This document shows positions 40,328 through 50,501 of a stretch of DNA of 64,000 nt, piece by piece (within the stretch, counting starts at the first letter, position 1; each line of letters starts with the position of its first letter). Origin of the DNA: Cenarchaeum sp. (lineage in GTDB: Archaea; Thermoproteota; Nitrososphaeria; Nitrososphaerales; Nitrosopumilaceae); the NCBI GenBank assembly GCA_965212015.1, contig OZ243037.1, positions 64,001-128,000 of the forward strand, written 5' to 3'. The position numbers and the translations under genes were made by a program. The notes below the pieces were generated by a model. The model was not told the origin of the DNA, made no database searches, and worked only from the letters and a program-made list of their open reading frames with translations.

Positions 40328-43080
40328 ATGTCCGGAACGGCGTTATCCAAATCCCCCCCCTAGCTTTAAAATATACGCCGTATGCGGCCCTTGCAATAGT
40401 AATGCTGGCGCTCTCTACCGGTACAGCATATGCCGCAGAATCCGATGATTCCTCGCCCGCAATACTAAACACGATTCAAAACTTTGAGATTTCCGCCGGC
40501 GAGACGGCAAAGCTGTACCTTCACACAAAGTTTACAGATGATGGCGCAATGACGTATGCGGTAGATGCGGCAGACTCTGCAATAGTGTCCGTACGGACAG
40601 ACGGGAGCCGGGTTGCAATGACCGGGCTTGCGGCAGGCACCACGCAGGTTACCGCATGCGCCAGCGACGGCACAAACGATGCAACGTGCCAGACGTTCCG
40701 GGTAACCGTACAGCCATCTGCCACGCCGGTAAAAATATCAAACACGATTCAAAACTTTGAGATTTTAAATGGTGAGACGGCAAAGCTGTACCTTCACACA
40801 AAGTTTTCGGGCCAGGGAGATCTGGAATATACGGCTGATGCGGCAGACTCTACAATAGTGTCCATACAGACAGACAAGGGCAGGGTTGCAATGACCGGGC
40901 TTGCGGCAGGCTCTACGCAGGTTACCGCATGCGCCAGCGACGGCACGGGCGAGCCGCTCTGCCAGAGATACACAGTTACAGTCGCCGCAGGGTCGGTTCT
41001 GCTGCCGCCGCCGGATCTCACGGCAGAGGCCACGGGAATGCTGACGGCAATAGATATCGGCACTGCACGGATTGAGGGCGGTAACTCTAGAATAACCAGC
41101 GACGCGCCGGATTCGTTCCCGCTGGGCGATACCGTCGTGACGTGGAGTGCAGACGGCCACGGGGATGTGGCCCAGACTGTCACCATACGGGATACGACCC
41201 CGCCTAAATTTGGCGTGCTGCGCGACATAAAGGTCGGAGTGTCGCCTGAGCGGCCGCTATTGTTCTATAACACTCCGGATGCAAGTGATCTTGCAGACGA
41301 CTCTGTAGACGTATCGTGTATACCTGAGCGCGAGACGGCAGTCACGCTTGGCACCGTCAGCGTAACATGTACTGCAACTGACGATTCCGGCAATTCCAGC
41401 ACGGGATCCTTTGACGTTACTATGGTTCCGTTTGATGACGGCCTCACGCCAGACACCATACAGTATGATCTTAATGCGCCAATCATTACGGCCCCCGATG
41501 ACATTACCGCAGAGGCGACAGGCGTACTGACTGCGGTGGATATCGGCACTGCCACAGCAAAGGACGCAGACGGCGACTTTCCCACGGTAAGCAGTAATGC
41601 GCCGGACTCTTATCCGCTGGGGGACACGGTAGTGACGTGGACTGCCGTTAATAGTGGCGGCTATGTCGCGCGCGCACACCAGAGTATTACCGTACAGGAC
41701 ACCACGCCGCCGTCATTTGATGTCGTACCGGAGGATGTCAAGCTTGAATCGCAAAACGGCACCGCGTCGCTTTACTATGACACTCCGACTGTGACTGATC
41801 TGGTAGATGGTCGTCCCGGCGTGACATGCGAGCCTGCAGCAGGCACGCAGTTGCCTGCCGGCACCACCAAAATCACCTGCACTGCCACGGATAATGCGGG
41901 CAATTCCGGCATGGTGTCGTTTGATGCCACGGTAATTACCGGCGACGACTCTGCCGCACCGCCGACCAAAGTCGCGTATAACCCCATGAGTATGATAACT
42001 GCGACCATTCCATTTCAAAATAGTTATCTTGGATCCTCTATTGACATAGACGGGAACACCATGGTTGTAGGCGCGTATGGCCACATCCATGATAGTCCGG
42101 AGGACGGTGCAGCATATGTGTTTACACGAACAGCTGACGGCTGGAGTGAGCCCGTCAAGCTTACTGCCGATGAAGGGTTTTGGTTTGGAAGAACCGTGGC
42201 CATACATGGTGATACAATAGTGGCCGGTACCAGAAACAGCGATGGCGGTGCCGTACACGTGTTTACGCGCGACAACAATGTCTGGGTGCAGTCCGATACG
42301 CTGCTAATCAACGGTACGGCCAGTGTTTATTTCGGCAGAAGCGTTGACATTTACGAGGATACAATCGTGGTTGGTGCGGACGTCATACATGCAAGTGACA
42401 CCAGTCCCGGATCGGCATACATATTTACACGGACAGCCGACGGCTGGAGTGAATCCCAAAAGATTGCTGCAAATGACGGCAGTAGAGGCGATCATTTTGG
42501 CTGGGATGTGGCCATTGATCAGAAAACCATTATCGTGGGCTCGTTTAAAAATGCCCTTTATGTCTTTGATGTGAACGACGGTGTGTGGAGCCAGACCCAA
42601 AAGATCACATCTGTAGATAGTGAACATCGAGATTATTTTGGCAAAAGTGCAGCCATACACAATGATACAATGGTTGTGGGTGCTGCCGGTGATGATGATA
42701 TGGGCTCTAACTCTGGCTCTGCATATGTTTTTACCAGAAATGATGCCACAAACAGCTGGGAGGAGGTCTCAAAGCTGCAGCCAGATGACGGCGCGCGTCT
42801 TGACTATTTTGGCAACAGCGTTTCAGTATATGACGACACTGTAATAGCGGGCTCGGTTTTTCACGGTGCGGGTGCGGCCTATGTCTTTAAGAACGGCGAC
42901 AATGCATGGGAGTTTGACTCCAAGCTGACTGTGGATGACGGCAGAAAACACAACTGGTTCGGTTACGAGGTCCGGGCGTATCAAGACACGCTCCTTGTGG
43001 GCTCGATACTGACGGACGGTCAGCTCGAAGGCGAGCTAGTATACAACTCTGGGGCAGTATACGAGTACAATCCGCCATAG
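40328..43080 (+). CDS. Adhesin-like protein (2 Ig-like repeats, HYR domains, FG-GAP beta-propeller); probable true ATG is out of frame at a C8 tract
   Basis: HYR motifs DTTPP, DLVDG, VTCTATD; FG-GAP motifs FG.SV.I..DT.VVGA and G.AYVF; signal peptide ending TAYA. Track start GTG 40306 abuts the TATA box; ATG 40328 sits at leaderless spacing. Confidence 0.82.
40467..40985. repeat. 273-bp (91-aa) intragenic duplication
   Basis: aaacacgattcaaaactttgagattt at 40467 and 40740 with continuing similarity. Confidence 0.88.
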
Positions 43081-43463
43081 CATTGGAGCGACTGAACCGT
43101 ATCTGCGTTAGCTTGGCAAAAGCCAGGTTCGGTATCGGGACGTTCCTGCGGATCAGGCAACGCAGTCCCGGCGCAGGCTGCGCACATGGACGCACTGCTC
43201 GTGGGATATGGCCATCTCGTCGCAGCCGATCCTGCGGTCAGTCATTGCCGCGCCGGAATCCCTGACTATTACGATCGGAGTGGACTCTGAGCTCTCGCCC
43301 ATCTTTAGGTTTGCAATTGTGGCCAGGCTGTCAGCTGTCGCCTGAAAGGTCACCTTTAGAGGCCGTCCATTCAGGTCGGTTTTTGCGCGCATGTCTGCCA
43401 CCGGTTCTAGTCCGGCGCACGCTATTGCCACGCCGGTCGTTCCGACCCTTGCAGGCATGAGCC
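42450..43463. repeat. About 1-kb direct repeat, copy 1 (adhesin 3' end + cofE 3' end)
   Basis: Matches about 47110-48120; both stop codons are offset by 4657 bp (43080/47737 and 43153/47810). Confidence 0.93.
43153..43463 (-). pseudogene. cofE: Duplicated 3' third of cofE, fused to an IS630 stub
   Basis: LMPARVGTTGVAIACAG...SLRRDCVA nearly identical to the C-terminus of 47810-48598. Confidence 0.9.
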
Positions 43464-43705
43464 AGTTTTGCACCGATTGGTACGATACGACGCAATCGCG
43501 CGCAGTATCTGCCACACTGCGTCCGTTTATTTTTATCATGCAGATGGCGTGCAGTCTCTCTCCTACCGGTGTGCGTTTGTTTTGCTTGTAGGTTTGGAGG
43601 AGTTTTTTTATTTTTTGCGTCCATGGCACGTATGAATGACTAGTGATCAAAAAAGAGCTTGGTTAAAAGTTATTGATCTTCAAAAAACTTATGCGTTTGG
43701 CTATA
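43464..43705 (-). mobile_element. IS630-family left end and HTH fragment
   Basis: IKKLLQTYKQ...VGERLHAICMIKINGRSVADTARDCVVSYQSVQNWL; ends at the TA of the CTAG in a repeat module, consistent with IS630 TA targeting. Confidence 0.7.
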
Positions 43706-43870
43706 GTATGAAAAAGTCTTTCAAAACCGACCCGGATTGACGCCTAGGCTCTGTCGGCAATGTCACAAAAAACCACGAATCGGAGTCAAAAGTTGACAAA
43801 TTGAGGATCTTGTGGGCAGATGCTGGCCCGTCTGTAAAGCCCCGAATCAAAGCCAAAAGTTGACAAATTA
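43704..43870. repeat. Left part of the modular repeat array
   Basis: tagtatgaaaaagtct...gattgacgcctagg and two gccaaaagttgacaaatt-type modules, matching 45860-46360. Confidence 0.9.
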
Positions 43871-44085
43871 AAAGAGAGTGCCCTCGGCGGGAGTCTGCAG
43901 CTCAAAGTCAACGCCCTGTATTTCTTGCAAATTTTGATCACTCATACGCAACCATACACATGATGTGCTTTGATATGTGTTGCGGCAGGTTATCGTATAA
44001 TGACCTGCCTCTTATATTGAATCAGCGATCAGGATCAACTTTATAATTGTGGCAAAGAACAAATCATTATACGGAATAGATCAAT

Positions 44086-45552
44086 ATGGGTGAGAAAACA
44101 AAGCCTCCAGAGCTGTTCATCGGGCTGACTGGGGCAGTCGGCACTGATTTGGATGAGGTCTCTAAAATGTTTGAGAACAAGCTACAGACCTTGGGATACA
44201 GAACAGAGATTATCGTATTGAGCAGATTGCTGGAGCAGGTAATAGGACTGGTAAATAAATATGACAAGAAGGACGAGTATGCCAGGGTCATGGCGCTTAT
44301 GGATGCCGGGGATGAATTCAGAAGAAAGGCCAAAACCCGTGATGCACTGGTTCGGCTTGCCATATTGTACATGATCGAGATCCGAGCCAGAGTGAACGGC
44401 TCTGATTCTGACCATGGGCAGGCATACATATTCAAGTCATTAAAACAGGTAGATGAGGTAAAAAAACTGCGCGAAGTATATGGCAAGAATTTCTGGCTTG
44501 CCTCCGTATATTCCCCACGTAATATTCGATTAAATTACTTGGAAGGTAAAATTGGCAAAGGCGGTTCGGATGTAAAAGAATTGATGAAACGCGACGAATA
44601 TGACGGTACAAATCCTTTGGGTCAGAACGTCCGTGATACGTTCTCAGAGGCAGATGTCTTTCTCAACATGAATCTTAATCTGCGTGGATCAATTGACAAG
44701 TTTATCGAGCTCTTGTTTGAAAACACACTCAATACACCATCCATAGAGGAATCCGGAATGATGCATGCTTTTACTGTCTCTATGGCATCCTCCTCGCTAT
44801 CGCGGCAGGTGGGAGCCTCGATTCTCACAAAATCAGGTGATCTTATATCGACGGGAATCAACGAGGTTCCAAAGGCAGGCGGCGGCCATTATCTGGCCGG
44901 AGACAGAAACGATGCAAGAGAGTGGCAGATTGGCCATGATTCCAACACACGCAAAAAGACAGAGGCACTTGGCGAATTCTTGTCCAATCTGGATATGGAA
45001 GGTTGGCTGGCAGATGGCGTTCAAAAATCAGACATGACGGCAAAAGCTCTGGAATCCGAGAAAATCAAAAGATCGGCATTTCTCAACCTGATAGAATATG
45101 GCAGAGAGGTGCACGCAGAAATGTCGGCTCTGATGAGCGCGATTCGTATTGGAGTATCCGTTACAGGTTGCACAATGTATTGTACTACTTTTCCGTGCCA
45201 TATCTGTGCCAAGCACATAATTGCAAGCGGAATATCCAGACTGGTCTATATCGAGCCCTATCCCAAGAGTCTGGCAGAAGAGCTGTATGGTGACTCGATT
45301 GCAGTGGATGAGGCGGTAACGGAGAATCAGATTCAATTCGAGCCGTTCATCGGCGTATCTCCTAGGCGGCATATGGAATTGTTTAAGATGTTAAAGAGAA
45401 AGGACGAGCAGGGCAATATTATACCATGGAATCCAACCGGCGCTACTCTTAGATATGATGAATTAATCCTGCCTTATAAGAAGGAACAACAGGAGGCCAA
45501 TAAATTAGAGAAAATATTGATCGATCAGGGATTAAAATTTGAACAAAATTGA
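44086..45552 (+). CDS. Anti-phage dCTP/dCMP deaminase (AvcD-like: P-loop kinase-like domain + zinc deaminase)
   Basis: FIGLTGAVGT, LREVYG, RQVGA, GINEVPKAGGG, VHAEMSAL, TTFPCHICAKHII, YIEPYPKS, FIGVSPRR. Confidence 0.93.
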   Translation: MGEKTKPPELFIGLTGAVGTDLDEVSKMFENKLQTLGYRTEIIVLSRLLEQVIGLVNKYDKKDEYARVMALMDAGDEFRRKAKTRDALVRLAILYMIEIRARVNGSDSDHGQAYIFKSLKQVDEVKKLREVYGKNFWLASVYSPRNIRLNYLEGKIGKGGSDVKELMKRDEYDGTNPLGQNVRDTFSEADVFLNMNLNLRGSIDKFIELLFENTLNTPSIEESGMMHAFTVSMASSSLSRQVGASILTKSGDLISTGINEVPKAGGGHYLAGDRNDAREWQIGHDSNTRKKTEALGEFLSNLDMEGWLADGVQKSDMTAKALESEKIKRSAFLNLIEYGREVHAEMSALMSAIRIGVSVTGCTMYCTTFPCHICAKHIIASGISRLVYIEPYPKSLAEELYGDSIAVDEAVTENQIQFEPFIGVSPRRHMELFKMLKRKDEQGNIIPWNPTGATLRYDELILPYKKEQQEANKLEKILIDQGLKFEQN

Positions 45553-45590
45553 CCCGATATTCTTATATGGTACCGGTTGCTGTATATGGT

Positions 45591-45701
45591 ATGCAAGATT
45601 TACCAAAAGGCTGGATGGCAAAAGTGTTCAAAGAGGCTGCCGAGGCAGTGAAAAAAATACCAAAAGAAGAGCGTGAATATTATGAGCAGCATTCTAGCTA
45701 G
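45591..45701 (+). CDS. 36-aa micro-ORF, copy 1
   Basis: MQDLPKGWMAKVFKEAAEAVKKIPKEEREYYEQHSS*; CTTATAT 23 nt before ATG; paralogue at 46706. Confidence 0.75.
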   Translation: MQDLPKGWMAKVFKEAAEAVKKIPKEEREYYEQHSS

Positions 45702-45859
45702 AATATAGACAGGTTTATGAATTCTGGCTGGATCGAGTTAAAGGTATCCAATAATTCTGTTTTACAGGTCACTTTGTCGTGTCTGAGTGAGGCCCAAAAT
45801 TGGCAAATATGTTGGGATCTCAAGAGGCTGGCAAATTAGGGAATCGTAGACAGGGGTAG

Positions 45860-47028
45860 TGCAGTCTGTAAAGCCCCGAACCGGAGCCAAAAGTTGGCAA
45901 AGTTGACAAATTGGGAGAGGTTGCAAGGCCATATGGTTCAGAAATACATCCAGTCCTAGTATGAAAAAGTCTTCCAAAATAGAAGACAACCGGGTTCGTG
46001 CCTAGATTGACGCCTAGGCTCTGCCGGTAACGCCAAAAACCCCGAATTGGAGCCAAAAGTTGGCAAAGTTGACAAAGTTGGCAAAGTTGGCAAATTGGGG
46101 AATGGCAGTGGGCAGGTGTGGGGCCGTCTGTAAAGCCCGAATTGGAGCCAAAAGTTGACAAAGTTGGCAAAGTTGGCAAAGTTGGCAAAGTTGGCAAAGT
46201 TGGCAAATCAGGGGTGGTTGCAAGGCCATATGGTTCAGAAATACATCCAGTCCTAGTATGAAAAAGTCTTCCAAAACCGACCCAGATTGACGCCTAGACT
46301 CTGCCGGCAATGTTATCAAAAACCCCGAACCGGAGCCAAAAGTTCACAAAGTTCACAAATTGGGGGACACTGCCTAAAAAGTTGGCAAAGTTGGCAAATC
46401 AGGGATGATGCCTAGAAAGTTGGCAAATTCAGGAAAAACGCCCAGGCGGGGATCTGGGAGCAAAGTAGACAAAGTAGACAGAGTAGACAAGTTGGGGATG
46501 CCTAGAAAGTTGGCAAATTCAGGAAAAACGCCCAGGCGGGGATCTGAACGCAAAGTAGACAAATCAGGAAGCTGCAAGACCATATGGTCCAGAAATACAT
46601 CTGTCTAGTATGAAAGAATCTTCCAAAATACACCTAGATTGACGCCTAGGTTCTACCGGCAAAGTCGGTGATATTGTTATATGGTACCGGCTTGCCATAT
46701 ATGGTATGCAAGACTTACCAAAAGGCTGGATGGCAAAAGTACTCAAAGAAACTGTGGAGGAAGTGAAAAAAATGCCAAAAGAAGAGCGCGAATACTATGA
46801 ACAATCATCCAACTATAATGACTAGTGGTTTTTAAATTCTGGCAGGATCAAGTTAAAGATATCTAGTAGCTCGGTTTCTCAGATCGCTTTGCCGTGTCTG
46901 AGTAAGGCCCAAAATTGGCAGATATGTTGGGATCTCAAGAGGCTGGCAAATTAGAGAATTATGGGCAGGCGTAGTATAATCTGTAAACCCGGAATTGGAG
47001 CCAAAAGTTGACAAATCAGGGGGTGGTT
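45860..47028. repeat. Modular repeat array with variable-number 9-bp satellite (AAAGTTGGC/AAAGTTGAC and variants)
   Basis: About 100-bp module (gcaaggccatatgg...gattgacgcctag) at about 45920, 46218, 46572; satellite runs of 1-6 units; a 50-bp segment repeated at 46407 and 46497. Confidence 0.93.
46706..46825 (+). CDS. 39-aa micro-ORF, copy 2
   Basis: MQDLPKGWMAKVLKETVEEVKKMPKEEREYYEQSSNYND*; same ttatatggtaccgg upstream element. Confidence 0.75.
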   Translation: MQDLPKGWMAKVLKETVEEVKKMPKEEREYYEQSSNYND

Positions 47029-47737
47029 GTAGGCGTATATGGAAATGCTCATGATATTCCCGAGGATGGCGCAGTATACGTGTTTACACGAACTATCGAC
47101 GGTTGGAGCGAATCCCAAAAAATTGTTGCAAATGACGGCAGCAGAGGCGATCATTTTGGCTGGGATGTGGCCATTGATCAGAAAACCATTATCGTGGGCT
47201 CGTTTAAAAATGCCCTTTATGTATTTGATGTGAACGACCGTGTGGAGCCAGATCCAAAAGATTACATCTGTAGATAGTGCACATCGCGACTATTTTGGCA
47301 AAGATGCGGACATACACAACAATACAATAATTGTAGGTGCGATCGTGGACGATGATGGAGGTACCAATTCCGGCTCTGCATATGTTTTTACCAAGAACGG
47401 TGCCACAAACAGCTGGGAGGAGGTCTCAAAGCTGCAGCCAGATGACGGCGGGCGCCTTGACTATTTTGGCAACAGCGTTTCAGTATATGACGACACTGTA
47501 ATAGTGGGCTCGATTTTTCACGATGCGGGTGCGGCCTATGTCTTTAAGAACGGCGACAATGCATGGGAGTTTGACTCCAAGCTGACTGTGGATGACGGCA
47601 GAAAACACAACTGGTTCGGTTACGAGGTCCGGGCGTATCAAGACACGCTCCTTGTGGGCTCGATACTGACGGACGGTCAGCTCGAAGGCGAGCTAGTACA
47701 CAACTCTGGGGCCGTATACGAGTACAATCCGCCATAG
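47024..47737 (+). pseudogene. Promoterless paralogous copy of the adhesin FG-GAP C-terminus
   Basis: Homologous to 42062-42149 and then 42450-43080; internal deletion of about 300 bp; frameshift near 47239. Confidence 0.9.
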
Positions 47738-47809
47738 CATTGGAGTGGCTGAACCGTATCTGCGTTAGCTTGGCAAAAGCCAGGTTCTGTATAGATACGT
47801 TCCTGCGGA

Positions 47810-48598
47810 TCAGGCAGCGCAGTCCCGGCGCAGGCTGCGCACATAGACGCACTGCTCGTGGGATATGGCCATCTCGTCGCAGCCGATCCTGCGGTCAGTC
47901 ATCACTGCGCCAGAGTCCCTGGCTATTACGATCGGAGTGGACTCTGAGCTCTCGCCCATCTTTAGGTTTGCAATTGTGGCCAGGCTGTCAGCTGTTGCCT
48001 GAAAGGTCACCTTTAGGGGCCGTCCATTCAGGTCGGTTTTTGCGCGCATGTCTGCCACCGGTTCTAGTCCGGCGCACGCTATTGCCACGCCGGTCGTTCC
48101 TACCCTTGCGGGCATTAGCCTGCTGTCCGTGATTATCACCCCGACATGGACGGACTCTGAGAGCAGAATTTTTCTCCTTATCTGCTCTGCTGTCCGGTAC
48201 GGGTCGTCCGGATACAGGATTACCGTCCCGCTTTTTGCGTTTGACTTGTCGATTCCGGCGTTTGGCGCCATAATGCTGTCGCTAGAGGCCATCACAAAGC
48301 CCGCAATGCCCCCAAAGACGCGGTCCGATTCCCTGATTATAATCTCGGCAATCCGGGGATTCATTGCGTGCATTTTTGCCAGTGCTGCGGCCCCATGTGA
48401 TGCCGCAACGCCGTCAAGGGCGATGATTCGCCGCTGCGCGTTTGAGACATACTTGCTGGAGACTATTAGCACGTCGCCGTCCTGCAGGTTGATCCCGCCT
48501 GACTGCAAGGAACGCGTTATCTCCCCGTAAAGGTCAAACCCGTCCTGCCTTTTTTGCGCGGTAACGGGAATCACTGTGAGGGTCACTGCCACCGGCAC
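47810..48598 (-). CDS. cofE: Coenzyme F420-0:L-glutamate ligase
   Basis: DGDVLIVSSK, NAGIDKSN, VGVIITDS, GVAI, ADSLA, MGESSESTP; GTG start chosen behind AGGAG. Confidence 0.92.
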   Translation of the reverse strand: MPVAVTLTVIPVTAQKRQDGFDLYGEITRSLQSGGINLQDGDVLIVSSKYVSNAQRRIIALDGVAASHGAAALAKMHAMNPRIAEIIIRESDRVFGGIAGFVMASSDSIMAPNAGIDKSNAKSGTVILYPDDPYRTAEQIRRKILLSESVHVGVIITDSRLMPARVGTTGVAIACAGLEPVADMRAKTDLNGRPLKVTFQATADSLATIANLKMGESSESTPIVIARDSGAVMTDRRIGCDEMAISHEQCVYVRSLRRDCAA

Positions 48599-48877: not shown

Positions 48878-49699
48878 ATGGGCCTGAATCTCTCCACAAG
48901 GCCGCTCAGTCACGAGGAACAAAAATTCTACCTGTATCTGGAGGGTGCAGGAATCAGCTCCTTCAAGGTCTCTGAAATCGACGAGAAGGAATCAGGGCTG
49001 AGCAGGGAGCATCTTTATGTGATAATCGGCAGGCTGGAAAAAAAGGGATGGATAACCGGGGTGGGAAAGGGAGTCTATCTGCGGCTTCCTGCCAGTACGG
49101 CCCTTGATGGGCGCGCATACCTTGAGGATCCCTTCGAGGTCGGCCTAAAGACGTATTCGGGATATCTTGCATTTCAGAGCGCGCTGAGGATACACGGATT
49201 GAGCGAGTACCAGTCGTTTACCGTTTTTGTTGCAACCAAAAACAAGTCAGAGACCCTACCGCTGCTTGATCACTATGAAATAAAGGCCGTAAAAATAGGG
49301 AAAAGGTTCACCGGCTTTGAGGAAAAAGGAAAATACAAGGTTTCAACAATGGCAAAGACGTTCTTTGACTGTTTTTGCCACCCGCAGTATGCGGGAGGCT
49401 ATTCTGAGATACTGAAATCACTGCACAGGACAAAAAACATGGATTGGACAGAGATGGAAAAACATCTAGCTGAGCTTGGCTCGTCTAGTCTGTGCCAAAA
49501 GATCGGCCATATGGTCTCGCTGCTTCAAAAAGAGACGCAATACGAGATTCCGGCGGGGTTTTTAGGATATCTAAAGGGCAGAATAAAAAACAAGACAAGG
49601 CTTGATTTTGCCGCATCCGGAGGGCAATATGTCCGAGACTGGATGGTAATTGACAATATAGGGGAGAGAAAGCTCCTGTCGTGGTGGTATGATGGTTGA
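48878..49699 (+). CDS. Type IV TA antitoxin, AbiEi family
   Basis: wHTH ...RLEKKGWI...KGVY, YLAFQSALRIHGL, KTFFDC...PQYAGG; overlaps the downstream nucleotidyltransferase gene. Confidence 0.88.
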   Translation: MGLNLSTRPLSHEEQKFYLYLEGAGISSFKVSEIDEKESGLSREHLYVIIGRLEKKGWITGVGKGVYLRLPASTALDGRAYLEDPFEVGLKTYSGYLAFQSALRIHGLSEYQSFTVFVATKNKSETLPLLDHYEIKAVKIGKRFTGFEEKGKYKVSTMAKTFFDCFCHPQYAGGYSEILKSLHRTKNMDWTEMEKHLAELGSSSLCQKIGHMVSLLQKETQYEIPAGFLGYLKGRIKNKTRLDFAASGGQYVRDWMVIDNIGERKLLSWWYDG

Positions 49700-50501
49700 A
49701 TTGCGGGAGGCAAGACAGGCAGCTGCAAGAACGGGAATTGGAATACAATATATTCTAAAAGAGGCAAGGGTATTTGATATTTGGAGCAAGATGTGTCCTG
49801 TCATGCTATCCGATGTAATATTGACAAATGCAAAAACAATATGCAAGGGCGGAACTTCATTGAACAAGATATATCTTGGTAAAATACAATGATTTTCAGA
49901 AGACATTGATTTTGATATATTTTTCAAAGATGATCGATCAAAGGATGAAAAGATCGATTTCATTAAAAATAAGATCATCGCACCTCTAAACAATTCCTAT
50001 GAAATACCAAAGGAATTCAAAAGAAGAAACACCATTCATTTTATGTGCAAGTTTAAAAATGAAATCAATATGGATGATAGCGTGTCTCTTGAATTCAAAA
50101 TTGGGGAAAAAATGACAGGTAGCAGTATAGTTACTAACGCAAGCAGTGCGATACTTCCATTAACCGTAGACAGAGTTCCTGCATATTCATTTCATACACT
50201 ACTTGCCCAAAAACTAAAGGCATTATATGAGCGAGATGAGGGAAAAGATATCTATGACATCTATGTTGGCCTTAATGCCACGAGGGAAATAAGCACGATA
50301 ATTGAGATTTTAAAAGACGTCCTAGCCTCGGCGAATATACGATATGACGATTTTAAAAAAGGAATTACAGAAAAACTTGAAGATGAGAAAAAAATGAAAA
50401 GCCTGCACGGTTCGACCAACCCGTATATTCCAAAGAATCTCAGGATAAATTGGGACATTGCTGCAAAAGGGATTTTAGACAAGATTGGGCCACATCTCTA
50501 G
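49689..50501 (+). pseudogene. AbiEii-family nucleotidyltransferase toxin with in-frame TGA at 49890-49892
   Basis: KGGTSLNKIY..Q*FSEDIDF...LAQKLKALYERDEGKDIYD in a single frame. Confidence 0.9.

Follow-up and report, generated by a model that had tools for sequence, protein, structure and literature searches.

The 64,000-nucleotide stretch of archaeal DNA analysed here (the window) comprises bases 64001–128000 of a single 1.76-Mb contig of Cenarchaeum sp. with 51% G+C; the genome itself is labelled G000 in our genome set. In the window, a gene for an AvcD-like anti-phage dCTP/dCMP deaminase is followed by two copies of a gene encoding a peptide of about 36 residues. Comparison of loci between genomes strongly supports the conclusion that this conserved micropeptide gene is tied to AvcD-like deaminase genes throughout the archaeal class to which the organism belongs. 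Patterns of substitution support the view that its open reading frame (ORF) is protein-coding and under purifying selection in frame. The explanation that we favour, at roughly even chances, is that the peptide is a dedicated partner of the deaminase and its proteic, probably labile inhibitor (antitoxin), which would make it the protein counterpart of the bacterial AvcI RNA.

Judged by its match to the family profile and by its zinc-dependent deaminase motifs, the 488-aa deaminase can be placed in the AvcD/PADLOC dCTPase family. The PADLOC dCTPase profile PDLC02373 aligns residues 4–472 with profile positions 149–545 of 630 (E 4.4e-147), and Pfam dCMP_cyt_deam_1 matches deaminase residues 224–389 (E 5e-17). 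The HAE (343–345) and PCxxC (370–374) motifs are invariant in 13 archaeal homologues (H343, A344, E345, P370, C371, C374). Bacterial plasmid homologues with 31–39% identity are annotated as “anti-phage dCTP deaminase,” and a sequence search of the PDB with the deaminase returned only isolated dCMP-deaminase domains and no like complex.

The two peptide genes are paralogues. A preliminary description of this DNA, made from the sequence alone, had reported two paralogous ORFs 1115 bp apart, each with a TTATAT box, and had placed the start of the first 39 bp past the deaminase stop; both ORFs and both boxes were found at that spacing, and the coordinates (45552 to 45591) agree. Twelve of the first 33 codons differ between the copies, 7 synonymously and 5 non-synonymously, with no indel, a recount identical to the original one; the Nei–Gojobori method gives 8 synonymous and 5 non-synonymous changes over the same codons. 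Between box and ATG, copy 2 carries a 1-nt insertion relative to copy 1. Because this puts an upstream ATG out of frame, the peptide start is placed at MQDL, and an upstream extension of the peptide (MVPVAVYG-) is ruled out by the same indel. A 40-aa ORF at 45717–45839 was rejected as a second conserved gene, its ATG being missing in copy 2.

The deaminase search across the class covered 401 genomes, 13 of which were positive. In 25 of the 26 full-length deaminase loci found in these 13 genomes, the deaminase gene is followed on its own strand by a peptide homologue. Its distance from the deaminase is at most 350 nt in 20 loci, 364 nt in one and 2.0–6.1 kb in four, and one locus has none; a transposase gene intervenes in two of the four distant loci (IS66 in L078, DDE in L085). 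The profile used for this tally was partly built from the tallied loci, and ten loci lay outside it (nine additional ones in genome G002 and one in genome G327); all ten were peptide-positive. A first, narrower profile of eight close peptides, searched in six frames, had found the peptide at nine loci at E < 0.01, in each case immediately after the deaminase and in its orientation, with weaker matches at four more; a second round added two. In a pattern scan restricted to one genome per species, metagenome-assembled genomes of Nitrosopumilus and Cenarchaeum each had a single copy, directly after a homologous deaminase.

At the genome level (n = 401), both genes occur in 12 genomes, only the deaminase in one (G039), only the peptide in four and neither in 384, a count in which two of the four peptide-only matches are weak and lie inside 1123-aa frames, and in which related genomes are not independent samples. 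Linkage of the homologues to deaminases was the point on which the preliminary description had staked its proposal beforehand, and the linkage is seen in 12 of the 13 deaminase-positive genomes as well as in the 25 loci. It holds across deaminases that are 38–75% identical and in unrelated flanks. Orphan peptide genes do occur; among the 13 deaminase-positive genomes, only one is without a detectable peptide. An intact peptide ORF still accompanies three or four deaminase genes that contain internal stops (L029, L035 and L039, with L036 in one search only). In a maximum-likelihood tree of 28 deaminases, the peptide subfamilies follow the deaminase clades, a pattern that adjacency alone would also yield.

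Tandem arrays of two to six peptide genes stand behind deaminases in four genomes. One set was found in G002, a relative of the same genus with a genome of 3.2 Mb, from which 13 loci with 70–75% G+C were fetched. A broad profile built from 24 peptides (A5) gave 36 matches at E ≤ 0.01 (49 at E ≤ 1) in these 13 loci, and in 12 of them tblastn located a deaminase homologue ahead of the peptide genes in the same orientation. G002 (L078–L090) thus carries at least 12 deaminase paralogues, each with one to six peptide genes, and several of them are broken by IS66 or DDE transposases. Some array units in G002 and G327 include a duplicated fragment of the deaminase 3′ end.

Evidence that the ORF codes for a protein under selection comes from comparisons beyond the window pair. 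Copies 1 and 2 are as similar over the 150 nt past the stop codon (122/150) as within the ORF (92/111), and because the similarity extends past the ORF, the pair alone is evidence of a recent duplication and not of protein-level selection. The earlier suggestion that the differences between the two copies reflect protein selection therefore survives in part: selection is evident, from the distant copies, while the pair from which it had been proposed shows duplication. Among nine close members from four genomes (36 pairs), pooled pN/pS is 0.33 in frame and 1.26 and 1.08 in the shifted frames. Pairwise dN/dS among own-genome copies 1–4, a set without copy 5, is 0.06–0.21 in five of six pairs, the pair of copies 2 and 4 being saturated at synonymous sites, and the differences pile up at third positions. 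In a DNA alignment of four genomes, conservation begins at the TATA box and ends at the stop codon: ORF identity to the other genomes is 86–89/111 nt, and just past the stop it falls to 45–62/~150. Distant subfamilies, at 17–31% identity, keep M1, G7, W8 and P24 together with a stripe of hydrophobic residues.

These patterns bear on the idea that the functional product is an AvcI-like RNA antitoxin located 3′ of the gene, with the ORF incidental. It has a precedent in the bacterial inhibitor, an RNA that, in the available parts of the published accounts, contains dispensable small ORFs, and the tandem arrays are reminiscent of type III RNA antitoxins. We nevertheless regard it as extremely improbable in view of the codon-position data, in which third-position substitutions in the pooled close members number 401 against 233 and 194 at the other two positions, the in-frame depression of pN/pS, and the retention of G7, W8, P24 and the hydrophobic stripe in the distant subfamilies. 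A search of Rfam over positions 43000–48000 likewise returned no match, with one sub-threshold hit only.

A TATA-like hexamer starts at −28 to −30 (mostly −28/−29) in 20 of 22 peptide genes from 12 genomes; the same hexamer pattern, which was chosen after the sequences had been viewed, occurs at 49 of 4400 random positions (1.1%) of these loci. In archaea, a TATA box at this distance makes transcription begin at or near the start codon, so a leaderless mRNA is expected. The peptide genes are probably transcribed from their own promoter as leaderless mRNA, independently of the deaminase. The private promoter at leaderless spacing that had been noted for the window pair is thus a feature of the wider family, recurring at a fixed distance.

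The peptides form a family without a match in Pfam, NCBIfam or PADLOC, and we did not find it described in the literature. None of 24 members matched Pfam, save for one chance-level match to DUF4473 (E 0.008), none of the 24 matched NCBIfam, and neither window peptide matched PADLOC. A profile search of the PDB gave chance-level matches only, and a search of the ESM Atlas gave no usable match. Among 5.8 billion predicted proteins, 17 relatives were found, all unnamed or “hypothetical” and without a Pfam domain; a protein-database search with the longer listed ORF had found one relative, and a whole-library search with a hidden Markov model three. One relative (P0004) has 72 aa and consists of two units fused in frame. 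An early profile of four own-genome copies (A2) gave only three matches in 60 relatives, at E ~0.005 and all inside long frames. This blank was a miss of sensitivity, because G002 and G035, both among the 60 sampled, were positive with the broader profile. In metagenome contigs, none of 586 pattern matches was confirmed, and in viral contigs two scans with subfamily alignments confirmed none of 182 and none of 368. Full-text literature searches, which did not extend to preprint supplements, found no description of a peptide partner for a dCTP deaminase.

Outside the archaea, a match in a Clostridiales contig (L022) with 60% identity over 24 residues was set aside as probably due to chance. The PADLOC deaminase family search was positive in 14 of 14 control genomes and was consequently unusable for selecting bacterial loci. 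Small ORFs overlap the deaminase stop codon in the loci of Azospirillum (L052) and Vibrio nigripulchritudo (L053); their likeness to the motif is faint, was judged by eye and is given no weight.

AlphaFold2, run with a 24-row alignment, predicts, with a mean pLDDT of 84, helices at peptide residues 8–22 and 25–34 separated by a turn at Pro24. The first helix has an amphipathic character, and the peptide bears a conserved hydrophobic stripe at positions 4, 9, 13, 16, 20 and 23. It is predicted to form an amphipathic helical hairpin, in line with the amphipathic helical peptide of the preliminary description. A structure prediction of the complex with the deaminase, a check suggested at the same time, gave scores of 0.45, 0.77 and 0.76 (median 0.76; 13 deaminase rows and 24 peptide rows), against 0.00 for the best of three controls. 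Of 80 solved complexes, 58 reach the mark used for this score, as do 2 of 110 mismatched pairs; custom alignments having been used, it is a rough guide here. At least 75% of contacts were common to the runs, and the partner pLDDT was at least 63. In the modelled interface, the hydrophobic face of the peptide lies on the N-terminal kinase-like domain (41–51, 94–102 and 127–130) and on the C-terminal tail (464–475 and 485–488). As a prediction, the model supports binding of the peptide to the deaminase.

The position of that interface also bears on a second possible role, in which the peptide would be a nucleic-acid-binding repressor of the deaminase promoter or mRNA. A candidate target exists: the palindrome CAGGTTATCGTATAATGACCTG (43987–44008), just upstream of the TATA boxes of the deaminase, which may act as an operator or form a small RNA hairpin. 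It belongs to a conserved stretch of ~60 nt that two other genomes (L026, L028) also carry in front of their deaminase gene. Lys and Glu are abundant in the peptide, as might suit such a role. Its net charge, however, is zero or negative (7 K+R versus 7–13 D+E), no known DNA-binding family was matched, and in the complex model, whose controls score 0.00, it is the enzyme that the conserved hydrophobic face contacts. We consider a repressor improbable.

The window pair is a small tandem array inside a longer repeat unit, and the genome holds five copies of the peptide gene in total. The 345-nt unit at 45556–45900 matches 46670–47014 with 83% identity (E 2e-96). Copy 3 is a full unit at 738125–738469, 91% identical, and adjoins a diphthine-synthase-like gene on the opposite strand. 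Copy 4 (834008–833892, minus strand) is similar only within the ORF (73% nt, 64% aa) and lies after an aminotransferase gene, with TTATAT at −29. Copy 5 (307191–307087, minus strand) is more distant and was found only by the broad profile; it has a TATA box and an intact ORF, and lies directly downstream of a decayed deaminase remnant with stop codons (307087–308751, minus strand). A second decayed deaminase remnant is present at 1006946–1007270. Over 150 nt of the 3′ part of the unit, 122–135/150 positions are identical among the own-genome copies, against 45–62/~150 in comparisons with other genomes. The 9-nt and 60–97-nt repeats that separate the two window copies recur in the same genome at 738.4–738.7 kb and at 744.4–746.6 kb, where they surround an AAA_16/STAND-like ATPase gene (744763–746001).

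Such a setting raises the prospect that the ORF is merely cargo of a selfish or recombination-prone repeat element that lies near deaminases without a functional tie to them. Copies 1–3 share the ~345-nt unit and neighbouring repeat families, which are also found at 738 and 744–746 kb; arrays and deaminase 3′-end fragments have been duplicated together in G002 and G327; and contigs from public runs appear to represent variants that skip one unit or the deaminase. Between genomes, however, it is the promoter and the ORF that are conserved and not the repeat context, the linkage persists across divergent deaminases with unrelated flanks, and the peptide subfamilies follow the deaminase clades. 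Cargo of this kind is for these reasons decidedly improbable. The contigs concerned, from public runs X1 and X2 (four runs were covered, all as contigs), join across 43772–46377 and 45882–46997. These joins weakly suggest population variants lacking the deaminase and copy 1, or carrying a single peptide unit; the matching sides are 32–42 nt long and lie in repeats.

Direct repeats of 1049 bp that are 93% identical enclose a 3.6-kb insert (43464–47075) made up of the deaminase, both peptide genes and the 9-mer arrays (Table 1). This layout is the footprint expected from the single-crossover entry of a circle carrying a copy of the junction, and the insert looks like the product of such an integration of a circular element. 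Genes related to AbiEi and, in truncated form, AbiEii follow at 48878–50501, which gives the region the character of a small defence island.

Table 1. Positions of the deaminase, the micropeptide genes and neighbouring features in the window.
Feature	Position	Strand	Description
Left direct repeat	42417–43463	+	3′ end of full FG-GAP/HYR surface-protein gene and 3′ CofE fragment (Pfam)
Region upstream of deaminase	43987–44050	+	Palindrome CAGGTTATCGTATAATGACCTG (43987–44008), then two TATA-like boxes
AvcD-like anti-phage dCTP/dCMP deaminase	44086–45552	+	488 aa, intact
TATA box of peptide gene 1	45563–45568	+	TTATAT, 28 nt before ATG; implies leaderless mRNA
Micropeptide gene copy 1	45591–45701	+	36 aa, MQDLPKGWMAKVFKEAAEAVKKIPKEEREYYEQHSS; 39 nt past last base of deaminase stop codon (45552)
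Non-coding 3′ part of repeat unit 1	45702–45900	+	Common only to own-genome copies 1–3
9-nt-unit arrays and 60–97-nt repeat families	45890–46570	.	AAAGTTGGC, AAAGTTCAC, CAAAGTAGA and variants; between both peptide genes
TATA box of peptide gene 2	46677–46682	+	TTATAT, 29 nt before ATG
Micropeptide gene copy 2	46706–46825	+	39 aa, MQDLPKGWMAKVLKETVEEVKKMPKEEREYYEQSSNYND
Non-coding 3′ part of repeat unit 2	46826–47014	+	From repeat alignment
Right direct repeat	47076–48120	+	3′ FG-GAP fragment and 3′ part of full CofE gene (Pfam)
AbiEi antitoxin-like gene	48878–49699		PADLOC, E 6e-46
Truncated AbiEii toxin-like ORF	50043–50501		152 aa, after AbiEi

The closest known system is AvcID (DcdV–DifV). 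According to the available portions of two sources, the V. cholerae deaminase DcdV/AvcD is kept inactive post-translationally by DifV/AvcI, an RNA of 152–174 nt encoded immediately 5′ of the deaminase gene in one operon, and removal of start codons of the small ORFs in DifV/AvcI leaves inhibition in place (bioRxiv 10.1101/2021.03.31.437871; PMC10511110). The same portions class AvcID as a type III toxin-antitoxin system that is activated on phage infection (bioRxiv 10.1101/2021.03.31.437871; PMC10511110). DcdV-like proteins were noted in Thaumarchaeota, with no partner mentioned for them in the accessible part of the preprint, which also lists the DifV-insensitive substitutions E123K, A126T, K201R, K511E and Q514R, located in the N-terminal domain and near the C-terminus (bioRxiv 10.1101/2021.03.31.437871).

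The archaeal pair resembles AvcID in its enzyme, which combines an N-terminal kinase-like domain with a C-terminal dCMP/dCTP deaminase domain, and in having a small, separately acting partner directly beside the enzyme gene in the same orientation, which would be expected to act after translation of the enzyme. The escape substitutions listed in the preprint excerpt and the modelled peptide interface both fall in the N-terminal domain and the C-terminal region, a likeness of region, not of aligned positions, that serves as a lead only. The partners themselves differ. The bacterial one, as far as the sources at hand describe it, is a 5′ operon RNA whose translation is not needed, whereas the archaeal one lies 3′, has its own TATA box, shows selection at the protein level and often occurs in several tandem copies. 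A non-coding RNA partner is not what the archaeal loci present, given a pN/pS of 0.33 in frame and a residue pattern kept at 17–31% identity; nor is a 5′ partner in one operon, since the peptide gene is 3′ in 25 of 26 loci with a TATA box of its own, and an extra 5′ RNA could exist in addition.

Other defence and toxin-antitoxin systems can be compared in the same way. The study “Antiviral defense via nucleotide depletion in bacteria” is said to describe dCTP deaminase defence as a one-gene system. The archaeal genes share with such a single-gene anti-phage dCTP deaminase the enzyme family and, as far as the accessible text goes, the presumed depletion of dCTP on infection (bioRxiv 10.1101/2021.04.26.441389), but they are accompanied by a second gene that is conserved. 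Type II toxin-antitoxin systems are alike in their adjacent genes, in a small partner that is here predicted to bind the enzyme, in orphan partners and in decayed toxins that keep their partners; they differ in that the partner here has only ~36 residues and no DNA-binding domain, lies downstream, has a private promoter and forms arrays of up to six. In type III systems such as ToxIN, the antitoxin RNA comes from a tandem repeat array with RNA repeats of 36 nt. The archaeal arrays are similar insofar as the antitoxin function would come from a tandem array adjoining the toxin gene, but their repeats are units of 600–1100 nt, each with a promoter and a protein-coding ORF.

If the peptide is an inhibitor, it and the deaminase would form a two-gene antiviral module. 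Each peptide gene would be transcribed as leaderless mRNA from a TATA box of its own, and the dose would rise with the number of tandem copies. The hydrophobic face of the first helix would dock between the N-terminal kinase-like domain and the C-terminal tail and so hold the enzyme in an inactive state. Once viral shut-off of host expression stopped the replacement of this short-lived peptide, the deaminase would be released, deplete the dCTP pool and so halt the replication of viral DNA. A protein would here follow the logic shown for the bacterial AvcI RNA. For the archaeal pair, we infer that the peptide is translated and labile, that it binds the enzyme in the cell and inhibits rather than activates it, and that the module is antiviral.

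This mechanism presupposes the sign of the effect. The peptide might instead be a required co-factor, an activator or an infection sensor, which bridges the kinase-like domain and the C-terminal tail or captures a viral protein. We hold this to be unlikely, if well short of negligible. The same linkage, genome co-occurrence and complex model would be seen, none of which gives the sign of the effect, and peptide copies that are orphaned or adjoin a dead deaminase would do no harm in this case either. A brake is favoured over an activator because the precedent in the enzyme family, AvcI/DifV RNA, is an inhibitor (as reported in the parts of the literature at hand); because the peptide gene has been multiplied up to six-fold behind one enzyme gene, which is less expected of a co-factor; and because peptide genes survive alone or beside dead deaminases, with the reverse seen in one genome only. 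None of these arguments is decisive. The private, apparently constitutive promoter also fits a brake that is continuously renewed.

Several further observations count against an inhibitory partner. Linkage and complex model would look no different for a co-factor or sensor, and the complex score is the model's own confidence and not a measurement. One intact deaminase, L037 of genome G039, is without a detectable peptide, and four loci have one only at 2–6 kb. Two of the own-genome copies (738 kb and 834 kb) are far from any deaminase. Copies 2 and 3 lie within a longer repeat unit with 9-mer arrays, and the repeats, instead of selection for dose, could have driven their amplification. Proteic antitoxin genes mostly stand ahead of the toxin gene and share its promoter, while the peptide gene here follows the deaminase and has its own. 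Lastly, six bacterial plasmid deaminase loci (of 52 matching records) have no significant peptide homologue, the best match, at E 0.11, lying upstream in L053.

A more far-reaching version of the antitoxin explanation is possible, to which we give slightly less than an even chance. The archaea of this class would have replaced, or never had, the RNA antitoxin; a leaderless, self-promoted protein of 36 residues would clamp the kinase-like domain to the C-terminal tail; the copy number (one to six per deaminase) would set the threshold for firing; and one relative would hold at least 12 co-diversified cognate pairs.

In bacteria, dCTP-deaminase defence is known in two forms, a lone gene and an enzyme under the restraint of a small RNA, and the archaeal version described here comes with a conserved, unannotated micropeptide gene. 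Automatic annotation mostly misses this gene, for which the A5 profile together with the TATA box at a fixed distance offers a search handle. The deaminase–peptide pairs of the sponge-symbiont-like relative G002, at least 12 in number, are a natural set for the study of cognate specificity. If the peptide is indeed the brake, one toxin fold would be under RNA control in bacteria and under micropeptide control in archaea, the peptide would be among the smallest proteic antitoxins, and the pair would constitute a simple two-gene archaeal defence module that is testable in E. coli.

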